DNA of 32,000 nucleotides from Nitrosomonas europaea (GTDB lineage Bacteria; Pseudomonadota; Gammaproteobacteria; Burkholderiales; Nitrosomonadaceae): contig NZ_FUWK01000026.1 in the NCBI RefSeq assembly GCF_900167395.1, forward strand, positions 1 to 32,000, given 5' to 3'. Positions 13,069-32,000 of the stretch are shown here, in pieces. Below the pieces are notes generated by a model. That model had not been told where the DNA came from. It worked only from the letters and a program-made list of their open reading frames with translations, and searched no databases. Positions within the stretch are counted from its first letter, which is position 1; every line of letters starts with the position of its first letter. A program made the position numbers and the translations under genes.

Positions 13069-15954
13069 TCAGACCCGGATCGAATCCGGTCTTCCCATAA
13101 ACTGCATCAGCTGGGTGGTCGATAGCGGGCGGCTGAAATAATAGCCCTGTTGCAGATAGCAGTGATGTTTGCGCAAAAATTCCATGTGTTTCTCGGTTTC
13201 CACACCTTCTGCAATCACTCCCAGCCCGAGATTATCACCCAGCGCGATGATCGCCCGGGCAATTGCAAAATCAAACTTCTCATCACCGGGGTGGTCCTGT
13301 TCGATGCCTTGGATGAAGGACTTATCGATTTTCAGAATATCCAGCGGCAACTCACGCAGCAGGCTCAGTGAAGAATAACCCGTACCAAAATCATCCAGAG
13401 CAATGGCAACTCCCAATGCCTTCAAGCGCACCAGTGCTTCTGCTGCACGCGGTAAATCGCTGATAACGGCGCTCTCGGTAATTTCCAGCATCAGCCGCCC
13501 GGCCGGCAAACCGGTACGTTCCAGCACACCAGCCACCTTCTGCAGAAAATCCGGATGCAGCAACTGCCGTGAAGCCACATTGACGGAAATATCGACTGCC
13601 TGCCCTACCTTTGCCAGATCAGCAGCGATCCTGCAGGAAATCCACAACACCAGATCTCCCAGTTGTCCGATCAATCCGACTCGTTCGGCAAGCGGAATGA
13701 AATCACCCGGAGACAACAATCCACGTGTGGGATGGGCCCAGCGTACCAATACTTCATTGTGGACAACTCGCTTTTGCTGAACATCGACAATGGGCTGGAA
13801 CAGAACATGCAGAGCCTTATCCTGATTCTCGATCGCCAGCCGGAAATCCCTTTCGAATTCGAGCTGCTCACGCGTCCAGGCATTCATCTGCCCCGAAGCA
13901 TAAAACTGGAAACCATTTCCTCCCTGCCGTTTGACACGCCGCATGGCAGAAACCGCTTCATCCAGAAAAATTTCACTCTTTTCATCCACCTGGTCAGGCT
14001 GGGAAGATATCCTGATACCAATGCTCGCCGAGATGAAAACCTCCTGTCCGTTGATCTCAAATCTACGATTGATGGTTTCCTGGACTTTCCTGGCAAACTG
14101 CAGTTCCTGGCCTTCCCGCACTGGCCTGTCCACCACCAGCATAAACTCATCCCCGCTCCAGCGGGCAATCAAATCTTCACTGCAAACCAGTTTAAGCAAC
14201 CGGTCGGCGATCATTTTCAACAAAGCATCTCCGGAGTGATAACCGAAAGCATCGTTGATCTTACTGAAATTATCGACTGACACCAGACAGACAATCAGTG
14301 CCGCGCCATGCTGCCGAGCAGAAACAGCCAGTTCACCAAAACGGGAAAGCAGAAAATTCCGGCTGGGCAGCATCGTCAGTACATCGTAATTGGCCTGGCG
14401 GGCAATTTGCTGCTTCATCTCCAGCGTATCGGAAATATCCGAAATCGTTACCACGGCACCCGCCGGAATACGCCACCTGTCATACAGCGCCCGATGTGTC
14501 ACGCGAATGGTACGCCTGTCCCCGGAAGGCAGCGTGAGGACACAATGCTGTATCCGGGAATCCGGACGTGTATCAGCAGATCCAGAGCCATTCACATCTC
14601 TATCCTGTTTATCAGGAATCAGACACACCCCGATCAGCTGCTCCAGCGGCTTCCCGATCAGCTGTTCCGATCTCGCACCCAGAATTCGTTCACTCTCCTG
14701 ATTGAGATAGAGAATGTTGCCCTTTGCATCGACTGTAATCACGCCCTCCTGCACTGAATCGAACACAGCCTGCAGACAGGATCCGGTGATGAATTGCGAT
14801 TGTATGAACTCATTGATACGTTGCCAACTCTGTAACGGATACACAGCCAGTGTCCCGATCAGGGCTACCCCCGGCGGCAGCCAGATATGAAATACACCGA
14901 GCAGCATCGTCACCAGTCCAATACCTGCTGCGAGTGACACCAGAAGCACGAGACTCCTGAATCGCCCCGGTACGATATTGACGACGAGCAATACCGCCAG
15001 CACCCATAATACCGTCACCGCGATAGCAACCATTTCGGGAACAGGATAAATCGAACGCCCGTTACGCAGCATGTCAACCACACTGGCGTGCCACTCGACA
15101 CCGCTCATATAGTTATGCCGGGTAAGTGAAACGGGTGTCAGAAAACCCTGCTGCAAACCAGTGGCCGTCATACCAACGATGATGATTTTTCCCCGCAAGT
15201 CATCCAGCAGATCATCATCATTGAGTAATCTGGCATAAGAAATCCGGGGATAAGTACCCGGCGGCCCGGCGAAAGGCACCATGATTTCACGCGAACGCAC
15301 CCAGCTATTCCCGGTATTCACGATTGTTTTATCTGCCTCGGGCATCCGGCTCAGCAGACGCATACGATTCGGCAGACTGCCTTTATCCGCCAGCGCCAGA
15401 CCCAGCGCCGGAAATGCAGGAATATCGATACCGGCGTACAGAAAAGTCCTGCGTGCCACGCCGTCCCGATCCAGCTCGACATCCACGTGACCAAGCGTGG
15501 CACGACGTTGTAACGATGCAAGCGGCTGGATGAGAGAGAATCTGTCACCGGAAGCATTCTGCGCCGGTGCAACCGGCAACACGACATTACCATGCGTAAA
15601 AATTGCCGTCTTGAGACGCTTATCGGCTTCCGGATGATCAACATCGGGTTCAGACAACAACAAATCAAGTGCTACCACATTCGAGCCAATCTGACTCAGG
15701 CGATCGATCAACCCGGCATGCAGCTCGCGCGACCAGGGCCATTTACCAATGGTTCGCAGGCTTTCTTCGTCGATTGCCACAATGACGATATCGCTATCCG
15801 GCTGAAAAGACTGACGACTGATGATTTCATCATAAACCAGCCAATCGAGACGCTGCAGCCAGCCCGACACCGACAGCAGCCCGACGACTACCAGCAACAT
15901 TGCGGCACGAAGTTTAGAGGTACCGGTAATACTGCGTATACCCCACCCCGCCAT
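13069..15954 (-). CDS. CHASE2-TM-PAS-GGDEF-EAL c-di-GMP turnover protein (961 aa)
   Basis: N-terminal periplasmic CHASE2-type region (VIVAIDEESLRTIGKWPWSRELHAGLIDRL..ALDLLLSEPD) followed by TM helices. PAS segment: VQEGVITVDAKGNILYLNQESERILG. GGDEF domain with an SGDEF variant (RWSGDEFMLVV). EAL domain with EVLVRW, VNVAS, EITES, DDFGTGYSS, KIDKSF, EGVE and QGYYFSRP. Confidence 0.9.
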   Translation of the reverse strand: MAGWGIRSITGTSKLRAAMLLVVVGLLSVSGWLQRLDWLVYDEIISRQSFQPDSDIVIVAIDEESLRTIGKWPWSRELHAGLIDRLSQIGSNVVALDLLLSEPDVDHPEADKRLKTAIFTHGNVVLPVAPAQNASGDRFSLIQPLASLQRRATLGHVDVELDRDGVARRTFLYAGIDIPAFPALGLALADKGSLPNRMRLLSRMPEADKTIVNTGNSWVRSREIMVPFAGPPGTYPRISYARLLNDDDLLDDLRGKIIIVGMTATGLQQGFLTPVSLTRHNYMSGVEWHASVVDMLRNGRSIYPVPEMVAIAVTVLWVLAVLLVVNIVPGRFRSLVLLVSLAAGIGLVTMLLGVFHIWLPPGVALIGTLAVYPLQSWQRINEFIQSQFITGSCLQAVFDSVQEGVITVDAKGNILYLNQESERILGARSEQLIGKPLEQLIGVCLIPDKQDRDVNGSGSADTRPDSRIQHCVLTLPSGDRRTIRVTHRALYDRWRIPAGAVVTISDISDTLEMKQQIARQANYDVLTMLPSRNFLLSRFGELAVSARQHGAALIVCLVSVDNFSKINDAFGYHSGDALLKMIADRLLKLVCSEDLIARWSGDEFMLVVDRPVREGQELQFARKVQETINRRFEINGQEVFISASIGIRISSQPDQVDEKSEIFLDEAVSAMRRVKRQGGNGFQFYASGQMNAWTREQLEFERDFRLAIENQDKALHVLFQPIVDVQQKRVVHNEVLVRWAHPTRGLLSPGDFIPLAERVGLIGQLGDLVLWISCRIAADLAKVGQAVDISVNVASRQLLHPDFLQKVAGVLERTGLPAGRLMLEITESAVISDLPRAAEALVRLKALGVAIALDDFGTGYSSLSLLRELPLDILKIDKSFIQGIEQDHPGDEKFDFAIARAIIALGDNLGLGVIAEGVETEKHMEFLRKHHCYLQQGYYFSRPLSTTQLMQFMGRPDSIRV

Positions 15955-17576
15955 TACATAAACCCTAGAAACGGCAGAAAGAAAGGAAAACGATACGGAA
16001 TCTCGAATGACTGGACTGGCCCGAATACCCCTTCTTCACCATCGGCTCTGATCGGTTTGATACGCAGGTAATAACGGCCACCACCAGAATTGGGGATGAC
16101 GACTCTCGGTTCACTGACCAGGACATCACTGATGATGTTATCGAATCCGGAATCACGCGCCATCTGGAACTGGAACTGTTCACCCGTCTCTCCTGCAGGC
16201 CAGGCAAATCTGATTTCTTCACGCTCGATCTCGACCGAATCCAGTTCCGGACCCGGTACCGGCACTTTGAAAGATACCGAATCACTGTAAGGCCCCACCC
16301 CAATGATCTCGGATTCAGCAGCTATCCGCCACCAGTATTCGCCCGGTGTCAATGGTTCCGACAACATGAAATATCCTTCTGGAGAATCAGATTCATATTT
16401 TCTTGATTCTCTGAAATCAGCTGTACGATCTACTTCGATCAGATAACGTTTGATATCCGGCCGGGTAGCCCACTCAAAAACCGGTCGATTATCCCCGACT
16501 CTTGCACCCGATTGAGGTGCCATGATGAATGGCGGTTCCGGACGAGCATGTACCCTGATTTTCTTGACACCATCCTTGCCTTCCAGTCCCGACACATCCT
16601 GCCCGCGTACCCGCAGCCAGTAATCGCCATCGGCCAGTTCACGACCGCGCAGTGGCAGATTCATCGCGACCAGATCAGTCGAAATCTGCCTGAACTCAGG
16701 ATCCAGGGCAATCTGCACCCGATACGAACGTGCACCTGCCAGAGGTTTCAGAGAAATGATCAGAGGTACCCTCTCGTACAAATCCGGTGTCGCGGAAAAA
16801 TCCGGTCCGGGCAATAATTCAACCGGGCTGACGGGTGACTGGTCCGGCCGCGTAACCGTGCCATACCCCTCTCGTACCTGCACATTCCGTCCCTGTGCAC
16901 TCACCTCCAGCAGCCCCTCCAGAACTTCGCTGCGGGTAGTGCCATCCTGTTTATCCGCCCCTACACGAAAACGGGTACCCCGCACTGAACTCACGGCAGC
17001 AGGCGTCCGTATCCTGAATCGGGTGGCAGGCTCCGATCCATGCGGAGCGATATTTACCGTGCGGCCGGACTCCAGCTCGACTTCTGTCATCACCACCCCA
17101 TCCTGCCCCAGTACCTCGGCCTGTTTCAGGCGGATTTTACTTTCACTTTCCACTCGCAGCCGGGATCGATCCCTGAATTCGAGTGTAACCTGGGAATCCG
17201 GCCCGGTACTGATTTCATCCCCGATTGCCACACGCAATTTTTCCGTAACCGGTAAAATCTCAGCACTGGCAGCACGTCTAAGGGTTGCCGTCCCGTAACA
17301 ATCAACGATCTCAGCATCCCCCGGCCGGCGGGTCGCCCATTCGACCGGAATCCGGATTACCTTGCCTGGCGGAATATGATGCGGATCATGGATGCGGTTG
17401 AGCTGCTGCAGACGCGGCACATATTTCATGCTGACCAGATGACGTTCTGCCACGTTCCAGAGATTATCCCCTGAACGAATCGTGTATAGCCAATCCTCGG
17501 CTCTGACACCATCGGAACCTATCAGCAGGAAAAGCGCATACACCGGCAGCAACCAGTAAATCGTCTTATCACACAC
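15954..17576 (-). CDS. Secreted LysM + FecR-domain protein with three C-terminal beta-sandwich-like repeats
   Basis: Likely GTG start at 17576, giving the signal peptide (M)CDKTIYWLLPVYALFLLIGSDGVRA/EDW. LysM segment: YTIRSGDNLWNVAERHL...IPPGKVIRIPV. FecR-like segment: GDEISTGPDSQVTLEFRDRSRLRVESESKIRL...RFRIRTPAAVSSVRGTRFRV. Its stop TAA overlaps the CHASE2 gene ATG (TAATG at 15952-15956). The 68-codon upstream extension in the track is AT-rich and looks non-coding. Confidence 0.8.
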   Translation of the reverse strand: MCDKTIYWLLPVYALFLLIGSDGVRAEDWLYTIRSGDNLWNVAERHLVSMKYVPRLQQLNRIHDPHHIPPGKVIRIPVEWATRRPGDAEIVDCYGTATLRRAASAEILPVTEKLRVAIGDEISTGPDSQVTLEFRDRSRLRVESESKIRLKQAEVLGQDGVVMTEVELESGRTVNIAPHGSEPATRFRIRTPAAVSSVRGTRFRVGADKQDGTTRSEVLEGLLEVSAQGRNVQVREGYGTVTRPDQSPVSPVELLPGPDFSATPDLYERVPLIISLKPLAGARSYRVQIALDPEFRQISTDLVAMNLPLRGRELADGDYWLRVRGQDVSGLEGKDGVKKIRVHARPEPPFIMAPQSGARVGDNRPVFEWATRPDIKRYLIEVDRTADFRESRKYESDSPEGYFMLSEPLTPGEYWWRIAAESEIIGVGPYSDSVSFKVPVPGPELDSVEIEREEIRFAWPAGETGEQFQFQMARDSGFDNIISDVLVSEPRVVIPNSGGGRYYLRIKPIRADGEEGVFGPVQSFEIPYRFPFFLPFLGFM

Positions 17577-17858
17577 TTGGTAACTCGAACGGATTGATAG
17601 ACCATCATATTGAAAAAACAGACAAATACCATAATACCTGATACTGGAAAAGAAAATCTGATTATTCAAAATGAATATATGTTTCCACTGGATTGGAAAA
17701 AATAAGCCCTTAATAAGCCCTTGCAGGGCCTGCAACAGTAATTTCGCAACGACAGAAAAATTGAGTGAAATCATACGCAACCAGATAAGGCCGGGTTATG
17801 ATTGACACGGACTGTCCGTCGAGTCCGATATCGAAACCAGTTACATCAAGGTGATACC

Positions 17859-18887
17859 ATGATTTCAAATCCGGTCAATTCTGCAGTTATTGTGTCTGCC
17901 ACCCCAACTGATGCAATTTCACAAACTCGGCCGGTCAGTGCAGTTACCCCGGTACCGGATGCCACACAATCGGATACACCTGCCTTTATTCTGGGCCAGA
18001 AATATAGGGCACAGATCGGTGAACGGCTGACGAACGGCCATTCCCTCGTCAATGTCGCCGGCAGATGGCTGCAAATGCGCATGCCCGCTTCGGCAAACCC
18101 TGGAAATATTCTGGAATTAACGTTGATCGAGCAGTCTCCCCGGCTGAAATTCTTGCTGCACAGCGGTACTCAAGGTGGCAATAACCCGACAACACTCAGT
18201 CCGGCCGGCAGACTCATCGCACAGTTGCTGAGCCAGCCTGCCCCACCTGCCATGAAAACTGCGAACGAAGCAGCCCCGCTGTTGCCGATACCACCCGCTA
18301 CCGGTAGAGAAAGAATTCAGTTGCCCGCTCAACTGCAGCAAGCACTGTCAGCCAGCGGGTTATTCTACGAAGCTCATCTGGTGCAATGGCTCAGCGGCAA
18401 CCGTTCGCTGCAACAACTCCGGCAGGAACCGCAAGGCAAACTGCCCGCACCGGCAACCGTATCCACAACGATTACTGATTCAGCCACGGCTTCACCAGTC
18501 GCATCCCAGGCAGTGTCACTGATACAACAGCAACTGCATACCCTGGAAACCGGAACCATCCAGTGGCGGGGAGAAATCTGGCCAGGACAGACCATGGAAT
18601 GGGATATCACCGAATATCCGGATGATCAGGGGAAAGAACAGGCCGACAATGAAAAAACCGGGAAATCAGGTCGCTGGCAGACCCGGATTCACCTGCAACT
18701 GCCAAATCTGGGAAAAATCACTGCCACTATCATGATCGAACCACAGGGTATGCGAATCCGGCTGGATGCCGATTCCGATGAAATTACACGACAGCTCAGG
18801 AAAGAACAGATTACGCTGGCAAGCGCCATGCAAACGACCGGGCTGACGATTCGTGCGATGGACATTCAGCAACATGAAGCGACCTGA
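17859..18887 (+). CDS. FliK-like protein (flagellar hook-length control C-terminal domain), second copy outside the fliFGHIJK operon
   Basis: The ATG at 17859 has AAGGTGA upstream. C-terminal Flg_hook-type module: RWQTRIHLQLPNLGKITATIMIEPQGMRIRLDADSDEITRQLRKEQITLASAMQTTGLTIRAMDIQ. Compare canonical FliK at 28997..30142: AELKLHPAHLGPIEISLQLSDDQRLTAQFISHHPAVREAIEANLPRLREIMAENGITL. Confidence 0.7.
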   Translation: MISNPVNSAVIVSATPTDAISQTRPVSAVTPVPDATQSDTPAFILGQKYRAQIGERLTNGHSLVNVAGRWLQMRMPASANPGNILELTLIEQSPRLKFLLHSGTQGGNNPTTLSPAGRLIAQLLSQPAPPAMKTANEAAPLLPIPPATGRERIQLPAQLQQALSASGLFYEAHLVQWLSGNRSLQQLRQEPQGKLPAPATVSTTITDSATASPVASQAVSLIQQQLHTLETGTIQWRGEIWPGQTMEWDITEYPDDQGKEQADNEKTGKSGRWQTRIHLQLPNLGKITATIMIEPQGMRIRLDADSDEITRQLRKEQITLASAMQTTGLTIRAMDIQQHEAT

Positions 18888-19233
18888 GCCAACCGGGCAA
18901 GAGAATCAGGGCGAACCGACTGATTCACCCGCCCCACCAGAACATACTCCGATTCCCGGAGCAGTAGCACTCGCCTATCACAGCGGCATGACTGCTCCCC
19001 AGGTGGTTGCCAAGGGCCGGGGACTGATTGCTGAAGAAATCATTCGCCGCGCTCAGGAAGCCGGCGTGTATGTGCATGAATCGGCAGAACTGGTGGCACT
19101 GCTGATGCAGGTCGATCTGGATGATCACATTCCACCGGAACTGTATATCGCCGTAGCAGAGTTGCTGGCCTGGCTCTATCGGCTGGAAAACGATCTGGCG
19201 ATGCCCGCCGACTCACCCGATCCTTCTCAGTGA
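18874..19233 (+). CDS. FlhB C-terminal-domain-like protein (soluble EscU/YscU/FlhB-C homologue, YlqH-like)
   Basis: AVALAYHSGMTAPQVVAKGRGLIAEEIIRRAQEAGVYVHESAELVALLMQVDLDDHIPPELYIAVAELLAWLY matches the post-cleavage C-terminal subdomain of FlhB. There are no TM segments and no NPTH motif. The ATG at 18874 overlaps the upstream gene by 14 nt. Confidence 0.8.
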   Translation: MKRPEPTGQENQGEPTDSPAPPEHTPIPGAVALAYHSGMTAPQVVAKGRGLIAEEIIRRAQEAGVYVHESAELVALLMQVDLDDHIPPELYIAVAELLAWLYRLENDLAMPADSPDPSQ

Positions 19234-19375: not shown

Positions 19376-20173
19376 TCAGAAGTGTGATTTCGTATCGAAT
19401 TTTCTGGCCTGTTGTTCGAGCCAGATAATGTAACGTTGTATCAGCGTCCCTGATTTCTCAGACAAATTTACAAATTCACAACCGATGCGCGAGCAGGTGT
19501 TGCCATTGGAAAGAATGGCCATACTGATGCTCACGATCCGGACGGTAGTTTCAATCGTGTCGAATTCCGGTAATTCAATCCGGCAGTGCTCCAGCGTCAT
19601 ACCAGCTTCCAGCGGCGCATCGGTATCCGGCCGATCGATCAGCGCCATGCCACCGCGGCTGATATCCAGCAGATTGAGCGTAAGAAAAACTTCCTCATGT
19701 TGCCTCAATGGTGGAATGACGCAAGTTGCAGGGTTTGCCACGGGCGTTGCGATCCGATAAAAATTGCGCCGCTGCAGACGTTTCAGCGATGTCGGGAGAT
19801 CTGCACTGAATGCATTGCGACCCTCAAACCGGATGTGCTGCAGGTTGTTGCAATCGAATTCGATCCTGATGCGGTTATGGCTGGTGACACAACGCAACAT
19901 CCCGCTCTTGAGTGCCATTTGATTGAGTGTTTCATTGATCCCGTAATCCAGTACCAGTAACTTCTTTTGCAAATCGACAGCCAGAATGGATGAGAGAATC
20001 GCAGAGTGGCTGTTGCGGGCGAGATGCAGTGAAATCAGTGATTTTTCCTGCATGATTCCATTGAGGAAAAAACATACTTCAGTCAGAGAATGCACGATGT
20101 AGTCGGATTCATTCGTATCCCGCGATACGGATGAAGGCGCTGCCAATTCTGGATTTTTCCGAAGTATGGCCAT
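19376..20173 (-). CDS. ycgR: YcgR-like flagellar brake protein (PilZN + PilZ c-di-GMP receptor)
   Basis: PilZ signature RRxxxR (LQRRNFYRI) and D/NxSxxG (LLDISRGGMAL), preceded by a YcgR-type N-terminal domain. GAGGAA RBS. It starts 31 nt after the fliE stop on the same strand. Confidence 0.8.
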   Translation of the reverse strand: MAILRKNPELAAPSSVSRDTNESDYIVHSLTEVCFFLNGIMQEKSLISLHLARNSHSAILSSILAVDLQKKLLVLDYGINETLNQMALKSGMLRCVTSHNRIRIEFDCNNLQHIRFEGRNAFSADLPTSLKRLQRRNFYRIATPVANPATCVIPPLRQHEEVFLTLNLLDISRGGMALIDRPDTDAPLEAGMTLEHCRIELPEFDTIETTVRIVSISMAILSNGNTCSRIGCEFVNLSEKSGTLIQRYIIWLEQQARKFDTKSHF

Positions 20174-20204: not shown

Positions 20205-20534
20205 CTACACTTGCATGTTCATGATCTCCTGATACGCTGTTACCAGTCGGTTGCGTACCTGAATCATGGACTGAAAGGAAACATTCGCCTTCTGCAGAGA
20301 AATCATGACATCGTGCAGTTCGACATCCTGATTGCCACCCACGAATTCCCGACTCAGCTGACTGGCAGTCTGCTGAACAGTATTGACCTGATCGACCGCA
20401 GACTTGAGCAGTTGGCCGAAATCTGCCTGTGAAACCGTGGAAACGGTTGCAGAAGGTTTACTGCCACCCGCTGCCAGATCCGAAGTGGCCTTGAGCTGCG
20501 CCAGAATCTGATCCATGCCTGATGTAACGTTCAT
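20205..20534 (-). CDS. fliE: Flagellar hook-basal body complex protein FliE
   Basis: 109 aa. The C-terminal region [36 protein letters not shown] is typical of FliE. GGAGAA RBS. Confidence 0.9.
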
Positions 20535-28938: not shown

Positions 28939-28996
28939 TGGCATGAGAATTGCTTGATACTTGCCATACAACAACAAATCTTCTTCGAGGACTACC

Positions 28997-30142
28997 ATGC
29001 CGAATCTGCCCGCCCTTCCAGATATGGGTCTGCCTGTCGTAACCAGCGACCTCACAGCAACCCTTTTACCGGGCGTTGCCAGCCCCATTGTTCCCGGACA
29101 GCCAATCGAACAGGCATTTAGCAGCATCCTGATCAGTATGATGAAAAGCGATCAGGCCATTGAAGACGACACCGAAAATCCGGCACCGGTATCAATCGAT
29201 GCACTCATAGCCGGCATGATAGCTGCGCCGGCCAATCCACCTCAGCTCGTTCCATCTCAGCCCGCACCGGATGCACTGGACACACCGAATGCACCGGACG
29301 CACCGGCGGAAGAACTGTTATCCATGCTGGCGACAAGCATGATGCCGAATACCGGCCAGCCAGTGACGGATGAGCCTGTTACCTTCCCCGCAGGCGGACT
29401 GGCATCTGCAACGCCGCCAAATCTGCCATCGGACTCTGGCCGACACGCTGCCGATCCACTCCAGACAACCAGCCAGGCTCACGCTGCTCCTCTCCCTGCT
29501 GAACTCCCGGCCGGAAATATCAGTACAAGTACCCCGTTTCCCGCTCCTGTGAACAGCTTTAATCAGGCAATCGATGCGGCAAATTTTGCCGATAGCGGCA
29601 AATCCTTGCCGCCTTCGATGACATCTGTCCCGGTAACACCTGTAGCCGCACATACCAGCAGCACGCCACTGACTGATATTGCTGCTGATACCACGGCGAA
29701 TGATGCGCCGGCTATTGCCGCAGAATTTGGCCAGCCGGACTGGCCGGAAGAATTCGGCCGTAAAATCACCTGGCTGGCGACACAGCGGATGCAAGCGGCA
29801 GAACTGAAACTGCATCCAGCCCATCTCGGCCCGATAGAAATTTCACTGCAGTTATCCGATGATCAGCGGCTTACGGCACAATTCATTTCACACCACCCCG
29901 CAGTCCGTGAAGCCATCGAAGCCAATCTGCCAAGATTGCGTGAGATCATGGCAGAAAACGGAATTACGCTGGCTGATACCTCAGTCAGTGCAGATACACC
30001 CGGGCAGCAGGCAGAAAACAGACAAGGCAGTCCCTTCCGCCGCCCGGCAGCCGGTGATCACTCCACCTACGATTCCACCAGTCCGCAGACACCAGCCTTA
30101 CAGGCAACCAGACGTTCCAGCCTCATCGATACGTTCGCCTGA
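28997..30142 (+). CDS. fliK: Flagellar hook-length control protein FliK
   Basis: The ATG at 28997 has GAGGA 6 nt upstream; the track start at 28961 is a TTG. It has a Pro/Ala-rich central region and the C-terminal Flg_hook module (DWPEEFGRKITWLATQRMQAAELKLHPAHLGPIEISLQL...). Confidence 0.85.
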   Translation: MPNLPALPDMGLPVVTSDLTATLLPGVASPIVPGQPIEQAFSSILISMMKSDQAIEDDTENPAPVSIDALIAGMIAAPANPPQLVPSQPAPDALDTPNAPDAPAEELLSMLATSMMPNTGQPVTDEPVTFPAGGLASATPPNLPSDSGRHAADPLQTTSQAHAAPLPAELPAGNISTSTPFPAPVNSFNQAIDAANFADSGKSLPPSMTSVPVTPVAAHTSSTPLTDIAADTTANDAPAIAAEFGQPDWPEEFGRKITWLATQRMQAAELKLHPAHLGPIEISLQLSDDQRLTAQFISHHPAVREAIEANLPRLREIMAENGITLADTSVSADTPGQQAENRQGSPFRRPAAGDHSTYDSTSPQTPALQATRRSSLIDTFA

Positions 30143-30276
30143 CAAGCTTACCGCTTCTGCTTCACACTCACTCCCTCATGCCCGGCATCGGCAAGGGCCA
30201 TCTGCTTCATTGATAAGCCCGACAGGTAAAATCCAGGTCCCTTGCCAGAATCAAAAAGTCTTCTTCAGAAATTCCC

Positions 30277-30304
30277 TAAATGTAACAAGACGCTATGCCG
30301 TAAA
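30277..30304 (+). promoter_or_regulatory. Sigma-28 (FliA)-like promoter candidate upstream of the repeat-protein gene
   Basis: TAAA (30277-30280), a 16-nt spacer, then GCCGTAAA (30297-30304). The consensus is TAAA-N15-GCCGATAA, so the spacer is one nt too long and the -10 element matches 6 of 8. It lies about 118 nt upstream of the ATG at 30423. Confidence 0.3.
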
Positions 30305-30422
30305 GAGAAATAACGCCATAAAGGCTAGCGTAATGCCCGTAATACTGAGCATATTTTAGATCTAATGCCCTTATCCGCATTGATACCGAATAGGGACCCA
30401 ACAAGTTTTGGAGAAAATAATT

Positions 30423-32000
30423 ATGTCGATTATCAGCAGCCTGACCCCAACCCAAATCTCTGCGTTGACAACGACGCAGATAAAAGATCTCACCACAGGA
30501 GATATGAAAGCGCTTTCTGACAAGCAGATCAACGCGATGACATCCACTCAGATCGCGGCCATTGAAACGCAAGATCTGGTCATCCTGAGCGGCAAGCAGA
30601 TCGGGGCTTTTAATCCAAACCAATTTACCTACGGTTTGACCACCACACAAATCCAGGCGATTAATAAGGCGCAGGCCACCGGGCTTACCGCTGCCCAACT
30701 AAAAGACATGAATAGCGGCGATCTCTCCAGCCTGAGTGCAGACGCACTGGGCGCATTGTCCGCCAAGCAAATTCAGGGATTGAATTCCACTAACATCGAA
30801 TCACTTACAACAGCTCAGGCAGCCGTACTCAGCTACCAACAAATAGCAGCTATTAGCATAGATGCCGTCAAGGGATTTGAAACCGAGGATCTGGCTCAAA
30901 TTAGCACCGCTGCCATCAAAGGTTTGACTGCTGCACAACTCGGTGCCCTGAACAGTGAGCAATTCAGCTCTCTGGATTCCAGCCAGGTGCAAGCCCTTTC
31001 CGCCAAACAAATCCAGGCGCTGGGCACGGATGTAATCAAGAATTTAACAACCAGCGACATGAAGGAGTTCTCTGCCACCCAGGTCGCTGCCCTGAGTAGC
31101 GCACAACTGAAAGAACTCTCCAGCGGCCAACTTTCAGCCCGAAGTACAGACGCACTGGGTGCATTGTCTGCCAAGCAGATTCAGGGGCTGGATGCAACCA
31201 ACTTATCCACCGACACTATCAGTGCACTGACCGCCAAACAAATCGCAGCACTGACCACAACTCAATTGAGTGGAATGAACAGCAGCCAGATCGGAGCTAT
31301 CTCAACGAGTGGCATCGCCAGCCTGACCGCCGCACAAATCAAGGGATTGAGCAGTGCAAACGTGGAAGCGCTAACCTCAGATCAGGCTAAAATCCTGTCT
31401 GCCAAACAGCTTGCAGGCCTTGGCACAGATGCCGTCAAGGGATTTGAAACCGCAGATCTGGCTAAAATTGATGCCGCCGCCATCAAAGGTTTGACTGCCG
31501 CGCAACTCGGCGCACTGGGCAGTGCACAATTCAACTCTCTGGATTCCAGCCAGGTGCAAGCCCTTTCTGCCAAACAAATCCAGGCGCTGGGCACGGATGT
31601 AATCAAGAATTTAACAACCAGCGACATGAAGGAGTTCTCTGCCACCCAGGTCGCAACGCTGACCACAGCTCAGTTAAACGCTATGGATAGCGACCAGATC
31701 GGCGCTATCTCAACGAGTGGCATCGCCAGCCTGACCGCCGCACAAATCAAGGGATTGAGCAGTGCAAACGTGGAAGCGCTAACCTCAGATCAGGCTAAAA
31801 TCCTGTCTGCCAAACAGCTTGCAGGCCTTGGCACAGACGCCGTCAAGGGATTTGAAACCGGTGATCTGGCTCAAATTAGCACCGCCGCCATCAAGGGTTT
31901 GACTGCCGCGCAACTCGGCGCGCTGGGCAGTGCACAATTCAACTCTCTGGATTCCAGCCAGGTGCAAGCCCTTTCTGCCAAACAAATCCAGTCACTGGGC
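30423..32000 (+). CDS. Large octad-repeat protein, N-terminal 526 codons (open at the window edge); no signal peptide; family not recognised
   Basis: The ATG at 30423 has GGAGAA 8 nt upstream. I translated the frame by hand and it stays open for exactly 526 codons to position 32000. It is absent from the ORF track because there is no stop. The product is a continuous array of 8-residue units: TQISALTT TQIKDLTT GDMKALSD KQINAMTS TQIAAIET ... Confidence 0.85.
   Translation, partial: MSIISSLTPTQISALTTTQIKDLTTGDMKALSDKQINAMTSTQIAAIETQDLVILSGKQIGAFNPNQFTYGLTTTQIQAINKAQATGLTAAQLKDMNSGDLSSLSADALGALSAKQIQGLNSTNIESLTTAQAAVLSYQQIAAISIDAVKGFETEDLAQISTAAIKGLTAAQLGALNSEQFSSLDSSQVQALSAKQIQALGTDVIKNLTTSDMKEFSATQVAALSSAQLKELSSGQLSARSTDALGALSAKQIQGLDATNLSTDTISALTAKQIAALTTTQLSGMNSSQIGAISTSGIASLTAAQIKGLSSANVEALTSDQAKILSAKQLAGLGTDAVKGFETADLAKIDAAAIKGLTAAQLGALGSAQFNSLDSSQVQALSAKQIQALGTDVIKNLTTSDMKEFSATQVATLTTAQLNAMDSDQIGAISTSGIASLTAAQIKGLSSANVEALTSDQAKILSAKQLAGLGTDAVKGFETGDLAQISTAAIKGLTAAQLGALGSAQFNSLDSSQVQALSAKQIQSLG
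30861..31087 (+). repeat. Older partial copy of the super-repeat (module DAVKGFET...TQVA)
   Basis: 30861-31087 aligns with 31428-31654 and 31836 onward. The last ~130 nt (ctctggattccagccaggtgcaagccc...cccaggtcgc) are almost identical. Confidence 0.85.
31287..32000 (+). repeat. Tandem 408-bp (136-codon, 17-octad) super-repeat inside the repeat-protein gene, 1.75 units visible
   Basis: 31287-31694 and 31695-32000 align with offset 408. I counted roughly a dozen mismatches over 306 nt, about 96% identity. Confidence 0.9.

Follow-up and report, generated by a model that had tools for sequence, protein, structure and literature searches.

An ALTTAQ-repeat gene downstream of fliK in Nitrosomonas europaea: predicted helical-screw fold, OGT-type glycosyltransferase pairing and recurrent flagellar context

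Flagellins, HMW1 and serine-rich-repeat adhesins are glycosylated by dedicated cytoplasmic transferases, and the pairs flagellin-FlmG, HMW1-HMW1C (GT41), serine-rich-repeat adhesin-GtfA/B and Synechococcus pilin-Ogt (GT41) each combine the gene of a TPR/GT-B or GT41 enzyme with an adjacent one for a protein that is repetitive or forms filaments and leaves the cell by a non-classical route. FlmG-like TPR-glycosyltransferases modify flagellin in the cytoplasm before its export (PMC7591256), and GT41/SPINDLY-type enzymes, together with FkbM methyltransferases, are predicted components of flagellin glycosylation islands (PMC4875605). A cyanobacterial Ogt is reported to be necessary for pilus-subunit glycosylation. 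Here we describe a gene which may belong among such systems. It opens at position 30423 of a 32,000-nucleotide stretch of Nitrosomonas europaea DNA (contig NZ_FUWK01000026.1, positions 1 to 32,000 of the forward strand; the window), directly behind the flagellar gene fliK, and encodes a long array of eight-residue repeats of the Pfam family PF20080 (ALTTAQ repeat). That it is a real gene, belongs to PF20080, specifies about 700 residues in N. europaea, is paired in its subfamily with an OGT-type glycosyltransferase, recurs in flagellar gene contexts and varies between strains is shown or strongly supported by the data given below; fold and family are secure, and from these we infer a function.

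The nearest described structure is that of HeliScrew4 (PDB 9ZEM), a designed protein of 8-residue repeats whose 2.2 Å crystal structure is a tightly wound alpha-helical screw, with apolar side chains in the core and Ser, Thr, Asp or Asn at the helix N-caps. Designed helical screws are soluble monomers in the E. coli cytoplasm, and the authors of the design, who found one natural example of the fold in the PDB (7QLR), termed it protein 'dark matter' (bioRxiv 10.64898/2025.12.04.691947). As none of the 8 million papers searched mentions ALTTAQ or PF20080, the family itself is catalogued but functionally undescribed. A literature search on locus tags NE2085-NE2090 likewise found no paper, and the supplements of a microgravity transcriptome paper contained no rows for N. 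europaea fliJ or fliK.

From the ATG at 30423 the plus strand runs through 526 sense codons with zero stops and leaves the window at its 3' edge. Only three short antisense frames are listed in this region because the open reading frame (ORF) lister omits frames leaving the window; translation bears out the open plus-strand frame which the original prediction, made from the letters of the window, had described. For comparison we used a complete Nitrosomonas genome (L001) and several assemblies with the same locus (L002-L014), as well as further loci introduced where they are needed. The features of the gene are as follows.

Positions 30409..30412, plus strand: Shine-Dalgarno sequence GGAG, 9 nt before the ATG, kept in L001, L003 and L018.
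Positions 30423..32000, plus strand: ALTTAQ-repeat gene, its 5' 526 codons (open frame, PF20080 match at E=2.2e-89); expected total about 670-730 codons.
Positions 30426..30470, plus strand: conserved extreme N-terminal motif MSIISSLTPTQISAL, corresponding to the start M-x-S-I-x-S-S-[LYF]-[ST]-x-x-Q-I of orthologues from many lineages.
Positions 30594..30644, plus strand: first register break, a 9-residue unit, KQIGAFNPN-QFTYGLTT, from register analysis.
Positions 30666..31940, plus strand: higher-order DNA repeats of 258-300 nt, 63-91% identical, at spacings of 408 and 567 nt.
Positions 31197..31211, plus strand: second register break, a 5-residue unit, TNLST, from register analysis.

The 526 residues include 88 Ala, 66 Ser, 64 Leu, 54 Thr, 53 Gln, 40 Ile, 37 Gly, 30 Lys and 28 Asp, while Cys, Trp and His are absent, Arg occurs once and Pro twice, the last five counts being exactly those claimed earlier. 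The protein is acidic (59 D+E versus 41 K+R) and Cys-free, and Ser and Thr together make up 23% of it, chiefly in predicted surface turns. The hydrophobic autocorrelation has its main peaks at lag 8 (0.81) and lag 16 (0.78) and lesser ones at lags 3 and 5; the period is thus 8, in line with the earlier statement that the octads resemble neither a heptad coiled coil nor RTX nonapeptides, pentapeptide or hexapeptide repeats. The consensus is x-Q-[ILV]-x-[AG]-L-[ST]-[TAS], with about 65 octads in the window. In a register-corrected profile of the 64 octads that are in phase, position 2 is Q in 59%, position 3 is I, L, V, M or F in 92%, position 6 is L, I, F or M in 98%, and position 7 is S or T in 66% (S, T, N, D or G in 94%). 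Residues 2-526 are covered by these 64 octads and two off-phase units, which makes this a tandem array and not an isolated match. The array had been called uninterrupted, which does not hold strictly, as it is broken by a 9-residue unit (aa 58-66) and a 5-residue unit (aa 259-263). Around the first of these breaks the block LSGKQIGAF-PN-FTYG is kept in divergent alleles and in distant orthologues. A predicted super-repeat of 17 octads (136 aa) was confirmed, and the higher-order DNA repeats are a substrate for copy-number change; Tandem Repeats Finder found nothing on the window DNA because the copies have diverged and are not strictly tandem. Since the first 19 residues lack a basic residue and the maximal 12-residue hydropathy within the first 40 is 0.86, no Sec, Tat or lipoprotein signal is apparent, as the original prediction had held.

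It had also been stated that the repeat could be placed in no described family. This proved incorrect, as PF20080 (ALTTAQ_rpt) matches the window product with 293.3 bits (gathering cutoff 26.4; E=2.2e-89) in 22 stretches, and the full-length orthologue from L002 with 405.6 bits (E=1.7e-124). NCBIfam gave no match to the window product. Membership in the leucine-rich-repeat (LRR) class was rejected, the matches obtained from the single sequence being marginal (E about 0.05-0.7); these and the CAAP1, DUF4351 and phage tail-chaperone Pfam matches overlie the repeats, cover parts of the models and were ascribed to repeat composition. AlphaFold2, supplied with a 71-sequence alignment, gave a predicted local distance difference test score (pLDDT) that averages 88.9 over all 526 residues and 95.8 over a piece of 128, and according to DSSP every octad of these predicted models has a single helix, 4-6 residues long, and a turn of some three residues. 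In phmmer searches against the PDB the designed HeliScrew4 was matched at E=3e-10, and at E=1.4e-33 when the family profile was used. Foldseek searches of the PDB returned nothing at E<=0.001 for the 128-residue model and, for the 526-residue model, weak matches to generic alpha-solenoids, the best being mesothelin and other solenoids with a template modelling (TM) score of 0.45 or less.

Read as [ST]-x-x-Q-[ILV]-x-x-L, the ALTTAQ octad begins with a capping box, after which come two core positions. Each octad would then form an N-capped helix of five to six residues, with [ST]-x-x-Q as the capping box, and a three-residue turn, and the short helices would wind tightly round one axis into an alpha-helical screw, the core consisting of position 3 (I/L/V) and position 6 (L), and the Ser/Thr-rich turns lying at the surface. 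The predicted product is a soluble, acidic, Cys-free rod, the length of which would be set by a repeat number that differs among strains. From the profile matches and the models we regard membership in the ALTTAQ family and the helical-screw fold as highly probable. With other PF20080 proteins the product shares, apart from the match to the hidden Markov model, tandem octads with Q, aliphatic and L positions and S/T turns. With HeliScrew4 it shares, at the level of sequence and predicted secondary structure, the period, the N-cap S/T, Q at N3, two core hydrophobic residues and one short helix per repeat. The design differs in comprising 120 residues and in having Pro at N1 (a frequent, not a defining, feature of the HeliScrew design cluster), whereas the natural protein has 2 Pro in 526 residues and T, A or S at position 8/1; the natural proteins are also 6-40 times longer and contain super-repeats.

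The complete gene could be followed in other strains. FliI and FliJ of the window are identical to the proteins of N. europaea ATCC 19718, and the loci L002 and L007 are 99.9% identical to the window up to position 31654. In these two the same ATG opens a gene of 726 codons, ending ...QALSAKQIQAFTTDQIQHLNFGS, and the gene of L001 likewise has 726 codons. The 726-residue orthologue consists of octads from its first residues to the last few, contains no GG.G.D motif and gives no RTX match in Pfam. The window allele is identical to the L002 gene over the first 411 aa and lacks, in frame, 53 aa of repeats present there, so that about 673 residues are expected for it. Gene callers picked an internal ATG, giving 699 aa, while the upstream ATG and the GGAG are kept in every strain; the exact 699-residue products of L001 and L002 are absent from a collection of 15 billion proteins. 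Of the giant size postulated earlier, the part concerning N. europaea has to be given up, as its protein has about 700 residues, but relatives elsewhere do reach 2,000-4,554 aa.

Alleles of the europaea type have conserved termini, a variable middle and lengths of 537 to 726 residues, a range on which the possible collapse of repeats in short-read assemblies bears; the terminal ...QIQHLNFGS does not change between Nitrosomonas alleles of differing length. The frame is open in every strain despite indels that are repeat multiples (53 aa). In L003, L004 and L029 FliK is 92-98% identical to that of the window, and the first 200 aa of the ALTTAQ protein are only 44% identical. Judged from these alignments, the coding region is hypervariable between strains, as is typical of exposed proteins. 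Metagenome and draft-genome contigs very often end inside the ALTTAQ gene (L005, L008-L014, L018, L026, L027), and N-gaps occur in L003 and L004; because of such breaks, lengths from short reads are unreliable and the gene is under-represented in protein databases.

In L001 and L002 the gene is followed downstream by an AbiEi/AbiEii pair, after which a TPR+GT41 glycosyltransferase and a protein of the TPR-methyltransferase-GT2 type are encoded. Toxin-antitoxin modules were noticed around the ALTTAQ gene more than once: the AbiEi/AbiEii pair occupies 14337-15948 in L001 and 14336-15947 in L002, toxin-antitoxin ORFs of 208 and 340 aa lie near the gene in L024 and L028, and MazEF, ParE and a Fic-like fragment are found in the fliC-fliT locus of Nitrosomonas sp. 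SJ624 (L018, 1668-5137 and 9255-9641). By its gene content the ALTTAQ region seems to behave like a variable island. The ORF orf128 that precedes the L018 gene was considered as a partner and rejected, as it resembles a degenerate piece of a Fic gene and is missing from the other loci.

The wider family is large. An exhaustive HMMER search of 1.84 billion representatives returned 1,582 related clusters, 672 of them at E<=1e-10, and the family comprises about 1,600 clusters at 50% identity, many of its proteins having 2,000-4,500 residues. An earlier homology search had yielded only proteins under 920 aa, with 42% identity or less, and had missed the giant relatives; a word-indexed homology search with the N-terminal 168 aa gave nothing at E<=1e-8, and a scan of genome contigs with over-specific patterns from the single protein gave one locus, L018. 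Most PF20080 members have repeats from residue 1 and no signal peptide, and an N-terminal lipoprotein or Sec signal was present in only 5 of 120 members. In many of them N-terminal repeats are followed by a calpain-type protease, others have a C-terminal domain matching the self-processing module of the Neisseria RTX protein FrpC (profile against 6SJW, E=6e-30), and further fusions involve SBBP, He_PIG, EF-hand, DUF4347 and SelO. The FrpC-like domain of P0009, P0014 and P0047 reads Ser/Thr-Pro (SPLVLDLNGDG) at the position of the FrpC Asp-Pro cleavage site. Two matches point outside bacteria: P0007 (810 aa) is encoded on a contig (L019, 510-10433) of eukaryotic or giant-virus-like appearance, together with ubiquitin, a Ulp1-type (C48) protease and a large ResIII helicase, and P0086 comes from the amoebozoan Planoprotostelium.

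Orthologues in a narrower sense were sought by comparing an alignment of Nitrosomonas-type N-termini with metagenome contigs, which yielded 78 loci, the ORFs of which were clustered. The relatives encoded there consist of repeats only, up to the stop codon, are mostly 2,000-4,554 residues long and share the N-terminal M-x-S-I-x-S-S-[LYF]-[ST]-x-x-Q-I; C-terminal caps ending in hydrophobic residues are conserved among the orthologues. By these sequence characters they constitute a distinct subfamily, with a conserved M-x-S-I-x-S-S-L-x-x-Q-I start and nothing but repeats over 0.5-4.5 thousand residues. It differs from many other PF20080 proteins, which add domains, in being repeats only, in its own N-terminal motif and in its GT41 neighbour.

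That neighbour, a TPR+GT41 protein, is by far the commonest one, present in 29-35 of the 78 metagenomic loci. Where at least 3 kb were available on both flanks, ORF clustering placed a GT41 gene within 350 bp in 14 of 23 loci, and tblastn revealed two more in which it was masked by an antisense ORF (hence 14-16 of 23). Its usual position is immediately downstream on the same strand, or divergent upstream. Among the neighbouring GT41 proteins there are 24 clusters with less than 70% identity, and the GC content of the DNA ranges from 49 to 69%. In Nitrosomonas the enzyme aligns over almost its whole length with human OGT (E=1e-87) and with XcOGT (E=3e-86), retains in the alignment the HP histidine and the FN..K lysine, and is by sequence a genuine OGT homologue. 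The AbiE module separates it from the ALTTAQ gene in L001 and L002, and in L023 and L029 the two are adjacent; in L015, from another genus, the ALTTAQ gene is followed by a GT41 that is 57% identical to the Nitrosomonas one. Five loci that represent four further branches of the ALTTAQ family, the calpain type among them, had no GT41 neighbour. XcOGT (XCC0866), the best-studied and a structurally characterised bacterial OGT, differs in that it has no ALTTAQ neighbour; such a pairing was ruled out by the hemA-prfA-OGT context in Xanthomonas and Stenotrophomonas. There XcOGT and the Stenotrophomonas orthologue (L100, 8919-11707, and L101, 8914-11701) come directly after hemA and prfA and overlap or abut prfA, a housekeeping context with no repeat-protein neighbour.

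On this evidence a functional partnership between the ALTTAQ subfamily and GT41 is somewhat the better bet. The arrangement resembles the four glycosyltransferase pairs named at the outset also in its Ser/Thr-rich acceptor and in the association with flagellar glycosylation islands; it differs from them in that glycosylation of ALTTAQ is only putative, and the GT41 might act on flagellin instead. To our knowledge the ALTTAQ-GT41 pairing has not been reported, and few physiological substrates are known for the OGT homologues of bacteria. We put forward, as a tentative idea that has rather more chance of failing than of holding, that the repeats-only M-x-S-I-x-S-S-L ALTTAQ proteins could be the long-sought native acceptors of a clade of bacterial OGT homologues, the two genes forming a hitherto undescribed module for glycan-coated alpha-helical-screw fibres of 70 kDa to >450 kDa, often set within a flagellar apparatus or glycosylation island.

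In the window the genes fliF, fliG, fliH, fliI, fliJ and fliK lie directly upstream, and the ORF starts 280 nt past the end of fliK, so the position immediately downstream of fliK was given correctly in the original prediction. Three features of this upstream region are relevant.

Positions 28961..30142, plus strand: fliK, last gene of fliFGHIJK and upstream neighbour (Pfam Flg_hook, 1.5e-23).
Positions 30275..30370, plus strand: promoter and leader block of roughly 95 nt, almost unchanged between Nitrosomonas lineages.
Positions 30277..30304, plus strand: sigma-28-like promoter candidate TAAATGTAACAAGACGCTATGCCGTAAA (TAAA-N16-GCCGTAAA), from a consensus match.

The sigma-28-like candidate had been proposed earlier, and as a sequence match it was recovered as the sole occurrence of TAAA-N16-GCCGTAAA in the 32 kb, where 0.06 are expected and at least one match arises in 6 of 100 shuffles. 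It is identical in all fliK-linked Nitrosomonas loci; fliD of L018 has TAAA-N15-GCCGTTAA. The promoter and leader block, from TAAA to about 70 nt past GCCGTAAA, shows one or two changes in L026, whose FliK is only 79% identical, and in L029, which carries a divergent ALTTAQ allele; in L018 it is kept from the -10 element onward despite different upstream genes. Among the Nitrosomonas lineages the block 30275-30370 is far better conserved than both the flanking intergenic DNA and the coding region, and it contains three consecutive -10-type strings resembling GCC(G/A/C)(G)TAA(A/T). An Rfam search of the leader gave no match and its folding z-score is +0.33, leaving a riboswitch or structured leader unsupported. 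No terminator-like site was found on the plus strand between fliK and the ALTTAQ ORF.

Flagellar adjacency recurs in at least seven different gene arrangements. The order fliK-ALTTAQ is found in the window and in L001-L009, L022, L023, L026, L027 and L029, as the arrangement of the N. europaea lineage; fliC-flaG-fliD-fliS-fliT-ALTTAQ in Nitrosomonas sp. SJ624 (L018, L024); fliK2/flhB'-like, ycgR, cheV and TPR genes followed by ALTTAQ and GT41 in L015; ALTTAQ, a small TPR gene and fliC in nine loci; and fliC-ALTTAQ in L056, L087 and L099. In L081 three flagellin genes surround the ALTTAQ gene, and fliE-F-G follow closely downstream. Context thus supports the idea that the product is a surface protein coregulated with motility, through the adjacency to fliK, fliT and fliC and the near-invariant promoter block; for flagellar co-regulation of the gene in Nitrosomonas we find the case about evenly poised. 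The small TPR protein (158-167 aa, Pfam TPR_14 only) occurs in L042, L044-L046, L057, L065, L072, L074 and L081, between the giant ALTTAQ gene and a short flagellin of about 275 aa, in a betaproteobacteria-like group. It could be a chaperone or adaptor; N. europaea does not have this neighbour, and no FliS/FlgN-like partner was found.

Other genes of the window have counterparts at ALTTAQ loci.

Positions 17802-19233 (plus strand), 19376-20173 (minus strand) and 20205-20534 (minus strand): group of second FliK-like, FlhB-like, ycgR and fliE genes.

Here a second FliK-like (Flg_hook) ORF overlaps a small ORF resembling the FlhB C-terminus (Bac_export_2), and ycgR (PilZN-PilZ) and fliE adjoin; the FliK-like/FlhB-like/YcgR trio also precedes the ALTTAQ gene in the unrelated locus L015. 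Just before the flagellar cluster, at 13069-17780 on the minus strand, the window encodes CHASE2-PAS-GGDEF-EAL and LysM-FecR proteins, and in L030 (7311-9491) a CHASE2-cyclase gene lies directly upstream of the ALTTAQ gene.

The explanation which we favour joins these lines. The gene would be transcribed together with the late flagellar genes from the sigma-28-type promoter; the exposed Ser and Thr of its product would be O-glycosylated in the cytoplasm by the adjacent OGT-like GT41; the protein would leave the cell without a Sec signal, by type I secretion or through the flagellar export gate; and it would finally form a variable, glycan-decorated fibre at the surface or associated with the flagellum. 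As a complete chain, this late-regulon, glycosylated, non-Sec-exported surface rod is a plausible proposal with somewhat less than an even prospect of being right in every link. For the extracellular location taken by itself the prospects are roughly equal either way; the wider family appears to lean to the outside of the cell, going by the fusions with the FrpC module, He_PIG, SBBP and DUF4347 and by the few lipoprotein or Sec signals.

Several observations weigh against this proposal. OGT usually acts on extended peptides. The N-cap Ser/Thr are predicted by the models to lie within folded helix caps, and the N-terminus as a whole is predicted to be folded (pLDDT 92-97, above 90 from residue 3), unlike that of typical flagellar export substrates. 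A GT41 encoded beside flagellar genes could simply be the flagellin glycosyltransferase. The 22 kb upstream of the gene and the 6-8 kb downstream encode no export machinery. As many ALTTAQ-GT41 pairs lie away from flagellar genes, the flagellar link does not hold throughout. Matches to the strict sigma-28 pattern were confined to Nitrosomonas and occurred upstream of none of the orthologues elsewhere, where the pattern is neither a sensitive nor an independent test, because fliC upstream regions there also lack it. Neither 9ZEM nor 7QLR was among the Foldseek matches of either model, and the screw-fold assignment therefore rests on sequence similarity and predicted secondary structure. Finally, the literature search for ALTTAQ and PF20080 yielded no account of the expression, localisation or glycosylation of any ALTTAQ protein.

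Two of the competing explanations concern the way out of the cell, and they are alternative routes within the favoured picture and not contradictions of it. A substrate of type I secretion would be an unfolded, acidic, Cys-free repeat adhesin exported by an ATP-binding cassette (ABC) transporter, a membrane fusion protein (MFP) and TolC by virtue of a C-terminal signal. The lack of an N-terminal signal, the excess of D+E over K+R (59 versus 41) and the absence of Cys agree with it, as do giant relatives resembling LapA-type adhesins, the conserved Nitrosomonas C-terminus and hydrophobic-ended caps, an ABC exporter two genes upstream in L051, and another ALTTAQ branch that ends in an FrpC-type self-processing module and a Ca-binding segment, a hallmark of type I secretion. 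LapA/SiiE-type adhesins and the FrpC-type 'clip-and-link' RTX proteins are indeed similar in being acidic, Cys-free and dominated by repeats and in having no Sec signal, and ALTTAQ relatives grow to 4,500 aa, a sister branch carrying the FrpC module. They differ in that ALTTAQ proteins lack RTX repeats, Ig-like (BIg) domains and linked ABC/MFP genes, in that a predicted alpha-helical solenoid stands against their beta-rich repeats, and in that the ALTTAQ proteins with the self-processing module that were examined read S/T-Pro at the FrpC Asp-Pro cleavage position. The original prediction of a giant type I substrate with its signal beyond the window is unsupported in N. europaea, because the gene ends after 726 codons and no transporter genes are linked to it: the full-length orthologue, of only about 700 aa, has no RTX nonapeptide, neither the 22 kb before the gene in the window nor the 6-8 kb after it in L001, L002 and L007 contain ABC, MFP or TolC (outer-membrane protein, OMP) genes, and no transporter family recurs among the neighbours in 81 loci. 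What is left of the type I idea concerns relatives elsewhere, which can be giant or, in another branch, carry the FrpC module, and for the present gene we think this route, which would have to run through an unlinked system, unlikely. We would give the same low rating to a flagellar type III export substrate or structural accessory, exported after hook completion and staying with the filament or hook. The place of the gene, which in at least seven independent arrangements comes straight after fliK, fliT or fliC, a sigma-28-like promoter as in late substrates, a conserved extreme N-terminus, the missing Sec signal and the small TPR protein before fliC in nine loci, as a possible chaperone, all speak for it. 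However, most GT41-paired orthologues lie outside flagellar clusters, a cargo of 2,000-4,500 aa would be unprecedented for the flagellar route, the N-terminus is predicted to be structured and not disordered, and flagellin-like terminal coiled-coil domains are lacking.

It is slightly less probable still that the protein never leaves the cytoplasm, where it would serve the OGT-like enzyme, or the glycosylation and assembly of flagellin, as a scaffold, a decoy or a regulator. The cytoplasm is also the site of GT41 enzymes, designed helical screws stay soluble as monomers in that compartment of E. coli, many family members are fused to a calpain-type protease, usually an intracellular enzyme, and a signal peptide of any kind is missing; yet allelic hypervariability beside 98%-conserved flagellar genes and frequent change of repeat number would be unusual for a scaffold, and the fusions to extracellular modules elsewhere in the family and the giant size of the orthologues do not fit such a role. 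A spurious or decaying ORF, that is a low-complexity frame without a product, is already effectively refuted and has hardly any probability left: disagreement of gene callers about the start (699 versus 726 aa) and the breaking or splitting of the gene in short-read assemblies could be cited in its favour, but the Pfam match is strong, public data hold 1,582 related clusters, every strain keeps the frame open through repeat-multiple indels (53 aa), and the start, the Shine-Dalgarno sequence and both termini are conserved.

The ALTTAQ family has a wide distribution (about 1,600 clusters at 50% identity), includes members of more than 4,000 residues and is without literature, and its octads match a fold that was demonstrated only recently, by design, and of which the PDB reportedly holds one natural example. 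The family itself was already in Pfam; what is new here is the pairing of one of its subfamilies with an OGT-type enzyme and the recurrent flagellar placement. If the pair is an enzyme and its substrate, it would offer a directly testable entry to O-GlcNAc-type protein glycosylation in bacteria. If the favoured explanation is true, the model nitrifier N. europaea would possess a new class of surface or flagellum-associated fibres, and ALTTAQ proteins would be abundant natural examples of a fold termed protein 'dark matter'.

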